Shown here: piece by piece, positions 612-27,511 of the stretch
Layout of the letters: every line of letters starts with the position of its first letter
How positions within the stretch are numbered: position 1 is the first letter of the stretch
NCBI GenBank assembly: GCA_030149205.1
Contig: JASBSB010000006.1
Coordinates: forward strand, 480,001-512,000
Source of the DNA: Candidatus Heimdallarchaeota archaeon
Lineage (GTDB): Archaea > Asgardarchaeota > Heimdallarchaeia > Heimdallarchaeales > Kariarchaeaceae
Direction of reading: 5' to 3'
DNA length: 32,000 nucleotides
Notes under the pieces: generated by a model
Told to the model about the DNA's origin: nothing
What the model saw: only the letters and a program-made list of their open reading frames with translations
Database searches by the model: none
Position numbers and translations under genes: made by a program

Positions 612-703
612 CAAAGAGGATGGAAATGATTTAGCTGTCATTTAAGAATAACAGCAATAAATAACGGACGGGTAGTCTAGCTTGGTATGATGCTGGGTTT
701 GGG

Positions 704-717
704 TAACAAATCAAAAC
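704..717 (+). other. tRNA-Pro canonical 37/38 intron (14 nt)
   Basis: Central helix TTTG(698-701)/CAAA(712-715) with bulges GG^T and AC^A; only about 1 bp of intron-side helix. Confidence 0.88.
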
Positions 718-739
718 ACCCAGTGGTCGGGGGTTCGAA

Positions 740-769
740 ACAAAGAGAACTGGCTTCTTTTTGAGAAAT
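740..769 (+). other. tRNA-Pro non-canonical T-loop 59/60 intron (30 nt)
   Basis: Central helix TTCG/AGAA (3 WC pairs plus a G.A), bulges AA^A and AT^T, 9-bp intron stem CAAAGAGAA/TTCTTTTTG. Confidence 0.85.
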
Positions 770-787
770 TCCCTCTCCGTCCATAAA

Positions 788-3571: not shown

Positions 3572-4273
3572 ATGTCTGATCTAAGATCAAACTCAGAAAT
3601 TTTTGATGGGGTCCACTGGATAGGGGGAGGATTTGTGAATGGGTATGTCATAGAACAAAATGATCATTTGATCCTCATTGATACACTTTTCAATAAAGCT
3701 GCAAAACAGGTGATGAAATACATCAAGACAGAGTTATCAGATAAGCCAGTTACAGAGGTCTTTCTGACACATCACCACACTGACCACGTTAATGGTTTAC
3801 ATAAAATCTACGAGCGGTATGATCCAAAAATGTACACCTCCCATGAAGATTCAAAATACATCAATGGTTCAGAAAGGCGACCTCCACCAAACATCAAGGC
3901 TTTGTCATGGTTATTTCGAATCATAGACCCATTTATTACTGGGAAACCAGTCCAAAAACTAGATTTAGTTAAAGATAAAGACGTCATTCATGATATTGAG
4001 GTAAATTCTCTCCCAGGACACACCTTAGGATCTTTAGGGTTTAGAAAATCTCAAGCTTTGTTTTTAGGTGATGCTGCAGCAGTAAATAAGAAAGGTGAGC
4101 TAACTCTTCCTACAAAATTGTTTACTGAATCATTAGAACTCTGTAAGCAGTCATTAACCAAATTGAAAAATACTGAATTTTCAATGGTTCTACCTGGACA
4201 TGGGCCACCAATCCTTGAAGATGCAAAAATGAGGTTATCCGATTTACTTGAAAAGATATATAAGGAAATTTAA
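3572..4273 (+). CDS. Metallo-beta-lactamase-fold hydrolase
   Basis: LIDT, THHHTDH (HxHxDH), PGHT.GS, GDA and PGHG motifs. Confidence 0.9.
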   Translation: MSDLRSNSEIFDGVHWIGGGFVNGYVIEQNDHLILIDTLFNKAAKQVMKYIKTELSDKPVTEVFLTHHHTDHVNGLHKIYERYDPKMYTSHEDSKYINGSERRPPPNIKALSWLFRIIDPFITGKPVQKLDLVKDKDVIHDIEVNSLPGHTLGSLGFRKSQALFLGDAAAVNKKGELTLPTKLFTESLELCKQSLTKLKNTEFSMVLPGHGPPILEDAKMRLSDLLEKIYKEI

Positions 4274-4289
4274 AATGACCTAGCCGGGA

Positions 4290-4310
4290 ATTTCATCTCA
4301 GCATTGAGAA
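4290..4310 (-). other. tRNA-Glu non-canonical T-loop 59/60 intron (21 nt)
   Basis: Perfect BHB: central helix TTCA/TGAA, bulges AA^T and AT^T, intron stem TCTCA/TGAGA. Confidence 0.9.
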
Positions 4311-4331
4311 TTTGAACCCGGGTCGATGAGG

Positions 4332-4357
4332 TTCTCTATGATGTATAAAACACCATA
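4332..4357 (-). other. tRNA-Glu canonical 37/38 intron (26 nt)
   Basis: Central helix CTTT/AGAG, bulges CA^T and AA^C, 7-bp intron stem ATGGTGT/ACATCAT. Confidence 0.9.
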
Positions 4358-4444
4358 TGAAAGCCCATTAGGATTGACCGAACTACCCCACTAGGCCATT
4401 AGTCATTCTATTGAGAATAGACTTAATTTGAGCTTCTCAACAAG

Positions 4445-4555
4445 AACTTAAAGATTTTGAAGTGTTACACGAAATCTGACAAGTGACTTTTTGCTTAGTT
4501 CAAGCTCAGTAGATATTACACGAAGAAAAATGAAACACTTCAAAACGTTTAAGTT
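4445..4555. promoter_or_regulatory. Inverted 22-bp duplicated promoter element serving divergent tRNA-Glu and tRNA-Val
   Basis: Minus copy at 4445-4466 is AACACTTCAAAATCTTTAAGTT; plus copy at 4534-4555 is AACACTTCAAAACGTTTAAGTT (20/22 identical). Each contains a TTTAAG TATA box pointing at a tRNA. Confidence 0.65.
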
Positions 4556-4585
4556 AGTAAACATCTCAAACAAAATTAGCTAACT

Positions 4586-4658
4586 AGGCGAGTGGTCTAG
4601 GGGTTATGACGCCTCGCTTACACCGAGGAGATCGGGAGTTCGATTCTCCCCTCGCCTA
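4586..4658 (+). tRNA. tRNA-Val(UAC), intronless
   Basis: Acceptor stem AGGCGAG/CTCGCCT plus A73; anticodon arm CCTCG-CT-TAC-AC-CGAGG; T-arm GGGAG-TTCGATT-CTCCC. Confidence 0.95.
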
Positions 4659-4700
4659 TTCAAATTACAAAACTTTTTATTAATTTTAATTGACTTTTAA

Positions 4701-4970
4701 TTAATCGAGATCCTCATGGTGGGAATCGTAACTATCCTTATGACCTGATTCGTAATGCCCAGAATCGTGATGACCTGATTCATAATGATCCCCATCATGG
4801 TGGTTTGTGGAGAATGAATTTCCAATTCTATCCACACTAATGTGTGGCGAGAAGTCTGTGTTTTTCTGAATAGTCATCCCAACTGCGGAGATGAGGGACA
4901 GAGAGATTATTATCCCAAGGACATGAACATACTTCGAGTTACTTACCATATTAATGTAAGCTCTAACCAC
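4701..4970 (-). CDS. Small membrane-anchored or secreted His-rich protein
   Basis: Hydrophobic segment VHVLGIIISLSLISAVG followed by a His/Asp/Ser-rich repetitive tail. The start may be the ATG at 4949. Confidence 0.6.
   Translation of the reverse strand: MVRAYINMVSNSKYVHVLGIIISLSLISAVGMTIQKNTDFSPHISVDRIGNSFSTNHHDGDHYESGHHDSGHYESGHKDSYDSHHEDLD
4741..4800. repeat. Two imperfect 30-bp tandem units encoding H-[HYK]-[DE]-S-G type pentads
   Basis: TGACCTGATTCGTAATG at 4741 and TGACCTGATTCATAATG at 4771. Confidence 0.7.
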
Positions 4971-12426: not shown

Positions 12427-12516
12427 TGCGCAATGCGGGAATTTCGGAGACAATCCTCTATCGAACCCGCTCCCTAAGCTTGGGAAGCTCATGTGCTACC
12501 ACTACACTAATTGCGC
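12427..12516 (-). tRNA. tRNA-Gly(CCC) with a T-loop 59/60 intron
   Basis: Acceptor stem GCGCAAT/ATTGCGC plus A73; TGAGC-TT-CCC-AA-GCTTA; T-stem GCGGG/CCCGC. The mature form is 71 nt. Confidence 0.93.
12441..12459 (-). other. tRNA-Gly non-canonical T-loop 59/60 intron (19 nt)
   Basis: Perfect BHB: central helix TTCG/CGAA, bulges AT^A and AT^T, intron stem GAGG/TCTC. Confidence 0.9.
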
Positions 12517-24943: not shown

Positions 24944-27511
24944 TTATTTTGATTTTTCTGTTACGAATTCCTTATAATTTGGAGAGATGGTTAAATCAAC
25001 GATACCTGTACCAAGGGTGATTTCTTGTCCTACAATAACGTTTTCAATGATACCTACAAGATTATCACGTTCTCCTCTTATCGAAGCATCTAAGAGATGT
25101 TTAACAGTAACTTCAAATGCAGCTCTGGCCAAAACCGAAGTGTTTTCTCCTGAGATCCCATGTCTCCCTATCTGTCGAATATCGCCTGAATAGGTCATTA
25201 AATCTGAAACAAGCATTAAGTGCCTCATGTCAACCTCTAATCCTTGTTTTTCCATAACTTCATTTGATTCACGGATGATTGCATTTCTTGCTGCCTCAAT
25301 GCCAAGAGTTTCTGCAATTTCATGGATATGGTTAGTATAAGATTTTTCTGGATCAACTCCAGGAATTCTTAGTACCTGTATAAAGTTAGAGCCTTCAGAG
25401 ATTATCTCGAATCTTTCTTCCTCTCCTTCCTTTGAGCTCTTCTTCTTGATCATAACTCGACTTACACCTTTTAGCCCCTTTATTGGGATAGCTCTAACTT
25501 TTTCAGATAATTTTTGGAGCTCTTGTAAGGTTGGGCTTTCTGCATTTGGATAAACCACAATTACGTTCCCATCAACTGAAGCTTTATACTTTCTTTTTTG
25601 AATTTTCTCTCTAACCTCTTCAGGTGTGACCCCTTTATCACTGAGAAGTTCTTTGTTTAAGCTGACATTAATGGTTAAATTGATTTGATCCGTCTCTAAC
25701 TTTTCTGCGAGATCATTTACAGTTGTTAATTCAATATTCTGGGCAACTTCCTTTGCCTTCTCCCTATTTGTTTCATATTCTGGTTCCAAAGCAACTGTCA
25801 TACTAGGAGTACTGGGTTTTTTCCTTGCATCAACAATCTCAATTAGACGTGGTAAACCAAGTGTTACATTCATCTCTCTAACACCTGCAAAGTGGAAGGT
25901 TCTTAGAGTATTATGTGTGACAACACCATCGGCCGTAACAAAAGTTTCACTCCCAGGAACCGAAAAATCGTATACATAAGTGGTGGGAGATTTGATTCTC
26001 TTGATGTTGGTTATCCTATCCCAAGTTACGTCACTATAGATTGCATTTTCAAGAATTAAAAGCTCTTCAGTTAATTCTGCTGAGTTCTTATGATTTTTCA
26101 AAGAGTTATAGATCTGTATTAATTCTGTTCTCTGTAGAGATGAAAAATTTTGGAAGCTGGTTTTAAGCTTAATATTTACAATTTCATTTAAATTCTCAAA
26201 GCCTGGAATAACATCAGTCTTTGTGGATTTAATCGAGTTTAATCCCAATACATATTGAAAATCATTTTCATTTACAATAAGAGAATAATTATTTTTATTG
26301 AACCTAGTAATAACTTCAAACATTGAGAACAACAAACCAATCATCTGTAGATTCCAATCAGAATGTACATTGATCCGATAGTCCATTCCCTCTAAAGAGG
26401 TTAATTCGGAGTATAATAAATGTTCAAGAAATTCAGCTCTGAAGTTTTCATCATGTTCCAATATGTCTACAGGAATTTTATAATCTGAGTTTTCCTCCAA
26501 ATTTCTAACTATTGTTAAAATTTCTACAGAAATATCGGTAGTATCAATTGATGCTTTAACTTTTCTCTCTAATTCTCTCAACGCAACTTGGACATTTCCA
26601 GAATTTCCATAGGTTAATTCACTTGAGATCTGTTGAGGAGAATGTTTTGGGAATTTCATCATCACTGGAATGCTATCCCCAATCTTTAGCATATTTCCCT
26701 TTATAGGAATAATAGAGTTTTTAGCTCTGACTACAAATGAATGAGATGGAGTTGCGATTATTGACCTTCCTGAGGCAAAATCAACTTTTATCAAATTTCC
26801 GTTAGGTTTATGCCTGCTTATCTCTGCAACCGGTAACCATTCAACCTTCTCAGTTTGAACCAGTGATGGAACCTGTAAATTAAGTTCAGTGACGTCACCA
26901 ATAAAACTATCATTTTCTTGAATTTTTTTAGATTCAGGTAAAAGATCAATCAGATCATTGACCAACTCCTCAAAAGTTAAAACCTGAATTTTATCTTTAA
27001 ATTGCACAATGATCCTTTCGTTTCCTGATATTGACATTTGTGTCCCAGGTTCTCCAATACTCTGTGCACTTACAACACCTGCTGCTGCACCAGGATCCAT
27101 TTCTGCAAAGGTGTATGATCGAAAGATCTCAAGCATTATGGTTTCAAATTGTTCTTGAGTGACATATGTTGAATTTTTATCTGGTTTAGATTTTGTGGCG
27201 TTGATTTCACTTGCACGCTCTTTTAATTTTGCCCTAAGTTGATTTAAGACATCAAGAGAAACCAAACGATCAGATCTATTCTGATAATCTGCTAATTGAG
27301 TCTCTATATCGTCAAACGAAAGATATCCATTACTTTTACCTGTTGCCTTCTTGGTAGTTTCCTTTTTAGTGGTTGACTTCTTGGTAGTTTCCTTTTTAGT
27401 GGTTGCCTTCTTGGTAGTTTCTTTTTTGGTGGTTGCCTTCTTGGTAGTTGCCTTTTTGGTGGTTGCCTTCTTAGCAGTTTCTTTCTTGGGTACGGTGCTT
27501 TTCTTTGCCAT
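24944..27511 (-). CDS. rpoA2: DNA-directed RNA polymerase subunit A'' (Rpo1C), intein-containing, with a Lys/Thr-rich N-terminal repeat
   Basis: AQSIGEPGTQM|intein|TLRTFHFAGV, TLGLPRLIE, TNHIHEI...LGIEAAR, VD.RHL.LV.D.MT, LARAAFE, ENVIVGQ. Confidence 0.96.
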   Translation of the reverse strand: MAKKSTVPKKETAKKATTKKATTKKATTKKETTKKATTKKETTKKSTTKKETTKKATGKSNGYLSFDDIETQLADYQNRSDRLVSLDVLNQLRAKLKERASEINATKSKPDKNSTYVTQEQFETIMLEIFRSYTFAEMDPGAAAGVVSAQSIGEPGTQMSISGNERIIVQFKDKIQVLTFEELVNDLIDLLPESKKIQENDSFIGDVTELNLQVPSLVQTEKVEWLPVAEISRHKPNGNLIKVDFASGRSIIATPSHSFVVRAKNSIIPIKGNMLKIGDSIPVMMKFPKHSPQQISSELTYGNSGNVQVALRELERKVKASIDTTDISVEILTIVRNLEENSDYKIPVDILEHDENFRAEFLEHLLYSELTSLEGMDYRINVHSDWNLQMIGLLFSMFEVITRFNKNNYSLIVNENDFQYVLGLNSIKSTKTDVIPGFENLNEIVNIKLKTSFQNFSSLQRTELIQIYNSLKNHKNSAELTEELLILENAIYSDVTWDRITNIKRIKSPTTYVYDFSVPGSETFVTADGVVTHNTLRTFHFAGVREMNVTLGLPRLIEIVDARKKPSTPSMTVALEPEYETNREKAKEVAQNIELTTVNDLAEKLETDQINLTINVSLNKELLSDKGVTPEEVREKIQKRKYKASVDGNVIVVYPNAESPTLQELQKLSEKVRAIPIKGLKGVSRVMIKKKSSKEGEEERFEIISEGSNFIQVLRIPGVDPEKSYTNHIHEIAETLGIEAARNAIIRESNEVMEKQGLEVDMRHLMLVSDLMTYSGDIRQIGRHGISGENTSVLARAAFEVTVKHLLDASIRGERDNLVGIIENVIVGQEITLGTGIVDLTISPNYKEFVTEKSK
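25910..27034 (-). mobile_element. Intein (375 aa, residues 160-534 of RpoA'') with degenerate LAGLIDADG homing endonuclease
   Basis: Interrupts GTQM/TLRTF. Starts SISGNE, block B I.ATPSHSF, ends VYDFSVPGSETFV.ADG.VTHN; +1 residue is Thr. Confidence 0.95.
27338..27487 (-). repeat. Tandem 15-bp (30-bp higher-order) repeat encoding 10 x KK[AES]T[TAG]
   Basis: TTGGTAGTTTCCTTTTTAGTGGTTGCCTTC-like 30-mers at 27351, 27381, 27411 and 27441. Confidence 0.95.

Follow-up and report, generated by a model that had tools for sequence, protein, structure and literature searches.

The window, a 32,000-nt stretch of an archaeal contig, carries on its minus strand a real and clean example of a two-intron tRNA-Glu(UUC) gene. 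One intron lies at the canonical position 37/38, and the other lies outside it, in the T-loop at 59/60 (Table 1). By direct reading of the minus strand, 4397 is the 5′ end of the gene and 4276 is the discriminator A. Exons and introns were parsed by hand, and each pair was then verified by a script. Exon 1 provides the 5′ strand of the acceptor stem, the D-arm, the 5′ strand of the anticodon stem and the loop as far as A37, including the anticodon UUC (4361..4359). Exon 2 contributes the 3′ strand of the anticodon stem, a variable loop of 4 nt, the 5′ strand of the T-stem and UUCAAA of the T-loop, while U60, the 3′ strands of T-stem and acceptor stem and the discriminator A are located in exon 3.

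Table 1. Parts of the tRNA-Glu(UUC) gene and its putative terminator, in window coordinates
Feature	Position	Strand	Length (nt)	Precursor positions	Basis or remark
pre-tRNA-Glu(UUC) coding region	4276..4397	(-)	122		No encoded CCA; read from sequence
Exon 1, tRNA positions 1-37	4358..4397	(-)	40	1-40	Pairing table; BLAST
Intron 1, canonical, 37/38	4332..4357	(-)	26	41-66	Pair script and BHB scan
Exon 2, tRNA positions 38-59	4311..4331	(-)	21	67-87	Pairing table; BLAST
Intron 2, non-canonical, T-loop, 59/60	4290..4310	(-)	21	88-108	Pair script and BHB scan
Exon 3, tRNA positions 60-73	4276..4289	(-)	14	109-122	Pairing table; BLAST
Four-T run, likely archaeal oligo-T terminator	4272..4275	(-)			Directly after the discriminator base

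Removal of both introns in silico yields a tRNA of 75 nt, which ARAGORN calls as tRNA-Glu(ttc). Its acceptor stem has 7 bp, anticodon stem and T-stem have 5 bp each, and the variable loop comprises 4 nt. The D-stem consists of G10-U25, G11-C24 and G12-C23 with a U13/U22 mismatch. The anticodon loop reads CUUUCAC around the anticodon UUC, and the T-loop reads UUCAAAU. In a BLAST search with the spliced product, residues 1-40 match exon 1. If the cut in intron 2 is shifted by one base (60/61), the product is identical. An earlier note on this DNA had described a tRNA-Glu(UUC) gene with two introns and a 75-nt product; the pairing table, ARAGORN on the spliced sequence and the scan described below agree with this description.

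The T-run behind the gene is likely to act as terminator. It overlaps the stop codon of a convergent ORF of the metallo-beta-lactamase (MBL) fold (3572..4273, plus strand), and T-runs are also found 3′ of most orthologous genes with a called end. No clear TATA box was identified upstream of the gene. Synteny is partial: the MBL-fold neighbor is retained in one congener (G003), and four other genomes have a tRNA-Val near the Glu gene, arranged in different ways.

Both introns are enclosed by bulge-helix-bulge (BHB) motifs of strict hBHBh′ geometry, as established with a pair-by-pair script. In the first motif the anticodon stem (5 bp) represents the outer helix. The central helix pairs C32-U35 (CUUU, 4363..4360) with AGAG of the intron (4337..4334) and has 4 bp, one of which is G-U. 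The bulges are CA/U at 4359..4357 and AA/C at 4333..4331 (slashes mark the predicted cuts), and the intron itself forms a hairpin of 7 bp between 4356..4350 and 4344..4338. In the second motif the T-stem (5 bp) is the outer helix, and U54-A57 (UUCA, 4316..4313) forms four Watson-Crick pairs with UGAA of the intron (4295..4292). Here, the bulges are AA/U at 4312..4310 and AU/U at 4291..4289, and the intron hairpin has 5 bp (4309..4305 with 4300..4296). Thus, each intron shows a central helix of 4 bp, two 3-nt bulges on opposite strands and both flanking helices h and h′.

When all BHB-like arrangements in the 122 nt were scanned, these two motifs ranked first, far ahead of all others, with no central mismatch in either (0/0), outer helices of 5/5 bp and inner helices of 7 bp (intron 1) and 5 bp (intron 2). 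The letters of each intron were also shuffled in place in 200,000 trials; an equal or better motif arose in 1.05e-4 of the shuffles for intron 1 and in 1.75e-4 for intron 2. The pair table and the scan confirm the description of both introns as textbook BHB motifs with a 4-bp central helix, 3-nt bulges and intron stems of 5-7 bp. The minimum-free-energy fold of the precursor (-43.5 kcal/mol) differs from the fold that combines the cloverleaf with two BHB motifs (-34.2 kcal/mol); it does preserve the acceptor stem and the hairpins of both introns. Self-splicing introns of group I or II were rejected, since inserts of 26 and 21 nt compare with a ribozyme core of hundreds of nucleotides. No Rfam intron family matched within 4000-4800 at E ≤ 10.

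The genome is 3.3 Mb in size, distributed over 12 contigs, with a G+C content of ~35%. Among its gene products are Vps28 and an actin of eukaryote-like type (445 bits), both of which are absent from 14 control genomes. Hence, the host is an Asgard archaeon. A Nitrososphaerales-like thaumarchaeon, which the G+C content and the T-loop introns had suggested at first, was discarded in view of the actin and Vps28. A search for profilin gave no match in the genome and was likewise blank for the control. Two proteins contain both domains of the tRNA splicing endonuclease EndA. The best solved relatives of the first are 3P1Z_B (E 3e-31) and also 2CV8 and 2ZYZ_B, catalytic α subunits of crenarchaeal heterotetramers. 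K44, Y125, H133, R157 and K164 of A. pernix EndA, whose roles have been described (PMC3241643; K44 lies in the specificity loop), correspond to K72, Y153, H161, R185 and K192 in this protein (216-aa frame). The alignment with A. pernix EndA (PDB 3P1Z; PMC3241643) is ungapped through the Crenarchaea-specific loop. The Asgard α subunit is ~40% identical to it and is known here from its sequence. The second paralogue aligns best with EndA of M. kandleri and M. jannaschii and has Ser in place of the catalytic His, which fits a putative structural β subunit. At the sequence level, the pair therefore resembles an (αβ)2-type enzyme, with a lysine in the CSL/L1 loop of α and a non-catalytic β. Introns outside 37/38, such as those at 59/60, need an EndA of broad specificity. 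It agrees with the (αβ)2 EndA with L1 insert reported for Asgard archaea (PMC5829648). The ligase RtcB is encoded as well (555 bits). The host thus possesses both an EndA with the catalytic Tyr, His and Lys and an RtcB ligase.

From these elements we infer the following processing, including transcription, cleavage, ligation and the order of intron removal. Transcription of the minus strand would produce a precursor of ~122 nt carrying both introns, and the junction pairs would fold into helix-bulge-helix-bulge-helix motifs. An EndA of the heterotetramer type, composed of catalytic α and structural β subunits, would cut between the second and third nucleotides of each 3-nt bulge and release introns of 26 nt (37/38) and 21 nt (59/60). 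RtcB would then join the exons of 40, 21 and 14 nt to the 75-nt tRNA, and CCA would be added after exon joining.

The architecture recurs in the genome. Strict BHB introns of 17-29 nt interrupt the T-loop in at least 17 other tRNA genes, and most of these introns end in YGAAAU. The number of genes is a lower bound from a T-loop-specific scan that required a T-stem of 5 bp, 7/7 acceptor pairing and a strict BHB on UUCR. A census that combined excision at strict BHB motifs with ARAGORN identifies this gene as tRNA-Glu(ttc) and assigns it introns of 26 and 21 nt; it contains 19 models only and misses relaxed motifs such as those of tRNA-Glu(CUC) and tRNA-Pro(UGG). The plain Rfam model finds just 22 tRNA genes genome-wide, most of them over-long.

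Two further interrupted tRNA genes lie in the window. tRNA-Pro(UGG) (666-783, plus strand) has an intron in the anticodon loop and a T-loop intron of ~30 nt (UUCGAA/...GAAAU/U), and it is missed by the strict scan, ARAGORN and Rfam. tRNA-Gly(CCC) (12427-12516, minus strand) has no intron in the anticodon loop, but a strict BHB intron of 19 nt at 59/60; Rfam reports it as a tRNA of 90 nt.

Could the T-loop insert be part of the mature molecule? If only the 37/38 intron were removed, the 21-nt insert would be kept as an expanded T-loop hairpin. This is very unlikely, because such an insert would break the T-loop of 7 nt, which is required for the contact between D-loop and T-loop. The insert also forms a perfect BHB with U54-A57 as central helix, and close relatives (G001 and G003) as well as other genera have the plain UUCAAAU loop. 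In its favor, a census of Asgard tRNA genes suggests that some insertions may not be introns (bioRxiv 10.64898/2026.10.13.758758), although insertions in the T-arm are the class that most often coincides with canonical motifs in the same work.

The possibility of a decaying pseudogene, in which both inserts are junk and a working tRNA is no longer made, gains some appeal from the fact that standard tRNA finders overlook the locus. ARAGORN does not call it on unspliced DNA and reports only the neighboring intron-less tRNA-Val(UAC) (4585-4659), and the Rfam tRNA model does not match it either at the gathering threshold or at E ≤ 10. However, a tRNA pseudogene should be redundant, and its stems should be broken or its identity elements lost. 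Here, all four stems are intact, and BLAST and nhmmer searches with the exons turned up no further Glu(UUC) gene in the genome, which is 93.5% complete, so that another one could sit in the missing part. In long ORFs, GAA accounts for 63% of the Glu codons and for 3.9% of codons overall, and the gene appears indispensable. Furthermore, the spliced product aligns without gaps to the intron-less Glu(UUC) genes of three genomes from the same family (65, 61 and 62 of 75 residues identical), with matching sequences at the junctions. This alignment, like the ARAGORN call, indicates that a canonical cloverleaf results once the introns are cut out at the bulges. Pair 5-68 is U-A here and C-G in the orthologues, and pair 11-24 is G-C here and U-A there. 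These compensatory differences in the stems indicate that the exons have evolved under tRNA constraints. Together with the placement of both inserts exactly in strict BHB motifs and the same architecture in at least 17 other genes, this makes decay even less probable than retention of the T-loop insert. Since the assembly is of metagenome type and consists of 12 contigs, an assembly or chimera artefact was also considered as the origin of the inserts, but it is extremely improbable, because a ~150-kb contig from the run that was probably the source spans the locus without differences, contigs from the independent metagenome of a second study are identical over 4170-4362 (the whole of intron 2 and the larger part of intron 1), and related genomes share the gene layout. 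Neither DNA set contained variants, joints or intron-less alleles at the locus, the second leaving 4363-4444 uncovered. Among RNA sequencing runs, none that covers 3900-4800 was found.

Consequently, the locus is very probably a functional single-copy gene for tRNA-Glu(UUC), whose precursor would contain two protein-spliced introns. We infer the splicing of both introns from sequence features. The earlier note had considered the T-loop insert a true intron rather than a sign of decay, and this stands on the gap-free alignment, the compensatory changes, the single needed copy, the at least 17 similar genes and the matching enzymes. For annotation, the case has a practical side: ARAGORN and the Rfam tRNA model miss the only decoder found in this genome for its commonest Glu codon, and an automated annotation would suggest an incomplete set of tRNAs.

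Apart from tRNA-Glu(UUC), a single Glu gene was found in the genome, tRNA-Glu(CUC), located outside the window (C2:143765-143868, plus strand). It has inserts of 13 nt at 37/38 and 17 nt at 59/60. The inner helix of its T-loop motif is weak, corresponding to a relaxed BHB.

Comparable genes are known from Crenarchaeota. Multi-intron tRNA genes of this group were described by Marck and Grosjean in 2003 and by Sugahara in 2007/2008, as relayed by a review (PMC4090602). Position 59/60 figures among the non-canonical insertion points on record, and canonical and non-canonical introns can occur in one crenarchaeal gene (PMC4090602). The gene described here shares with Thermoproteales and other Crenarchaeota the short BHB-bounded introns, the position 59/60 and the combination of a canonical with a non-canonical intron, as well as an (αβ)2 EndA with a specificity loop. 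It differs in that its host is an Asgard archaeon. Unlike the intron families of Thermoproteales (PMC4090602), the introns have no near-identical copies in other genes: a search of the genome for other copies of intron 1 or intron 2 found none.

For Asgard archaea, multi-intron tRNA genes with introns at 59/60 are a trait that has already been published. In 2024, their tRNA introns were described as abundant, multiple and non-canonical (PMC11291895). An in-depth analysis by Goswami et al. (2026; bioRxiv 10.64898/2026.10.13.758758) found that called introns concentrate in the T-arm with strong BHB enrichment, described two EndA paralogues, and concluded that Asgard tRNA introns show patchy, recent turnover with repeated, lineage-specific gains. 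The present genome resembles these reports in several respects. Most tRNA genes are interrupted, many by at least two introns, and the introns are concentrated at 37/38 and in the T-arm, those of the T-arm mostly at canonical BHB motifs. Repeated lineage-specific gains and two EndA paralogues are likewise common to both. The reports focus on Atabeyarchaeia, Freyarchaeia and Jordiarchaeia, and the preprint stresses insertions in the D-arm, whereas the T-loop site 59/60 dominates in this genome. The gene raises no new question, but adds one very clean strict-motif case to what has been published on the heavy interruption of tRNA genes in Asgard archaea.

For a comparison across relatives, the Glu genes of the family and the order were retrieved with a pattern that matches their conserved 5′ half. 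Across the order, 22 of the 25 Glu(UUC) genes examined have an intron at 37/38, and 3 of 25 have one in the T-loop. Within the genus, both introns are present in the genome studied here (G000) and in G002, where the introns of 21 nt (37/38) and 31 nt (59/60) have relaxed motifs with one central-helix mismatch each; G001 and G003 possess the 37/38 intron only. The same holds for G005, G010 and G007 of the same family, while the Glu(UUC) genes of G006, G011 and G008 are without introns. In the sister family the 37/38 intron is found in 15 of 15 genes and the 59/60 intron in G015 alone, whose congener G020 is without it. Glu(CUC) genes have T-loop introns in G000, G011 and G040. Versions of one gene with no, one and two introns in a single family provide a natural series for studies of intron gain and loss.

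The patchy presence of the T-loop intron and its absence from the closest relatives mean recent gain or loss. In the RpoA′ tree, G000 is located outside a tight clade of G001, G002 and G003. Consequently, the T-loop introns of G000 and G002 require either two gains or one gain and at least one loss. These two introns have in common a stem closed by TC..GA with one apparent compensatory swap. Homology is not claimed, since many unrelated T-loop introns in the genome end alike. The T-loop introns of Glu genes show no relation in length and hardly any in sequence, and in each case close relatives are without them. It is conceivable, albeit rather unlikely, that within one order position 59/60 of Glu tRNA genes received introns in several independent events. 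Such a history would suggest that, rather than inheritance and loss, a site-directed insertion process for BHB introns is still active in Asgard archaea, for example reverse splicing through EndA and RtcB followed by copying into DNA.

Some minor observations concern the canonical intron. The Glu(UUC) gene of G010 (L011) contains a 31-nt insert in the anticodon loop, and the scan, which allowed up to one mismatch in the central helix, detected no BHB where the junction was expected; the motif may be relaxed or the boundaries may differ. In genus g11 of the sister family, a canonical Glu(UUC) intron of 31 nt is nearly identical in 11 genomes (L049, L053, L054, L056-L060, L062, L063 and L065) and is in part complementary to the anticodon stem-loop. 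In contrast to g11, the orthologous 37/38 intron is highly variable in the family of the window.

The RNA polymerase genes showed further peculiarities. RpoA′ orthologues have one in-frame stop each in G003 (TAG, L030) and G006 (TGA, L034), which may be due to sequencing errors. The A′ gene of G002, which adjoins A″, has an apparent insertion of ~490 aa that is absent from the genome studied here. In the window, the gene for A″ (24944-27511, minus strand) contains an intein, with an Intein_splicing domain at residues ~172-534.
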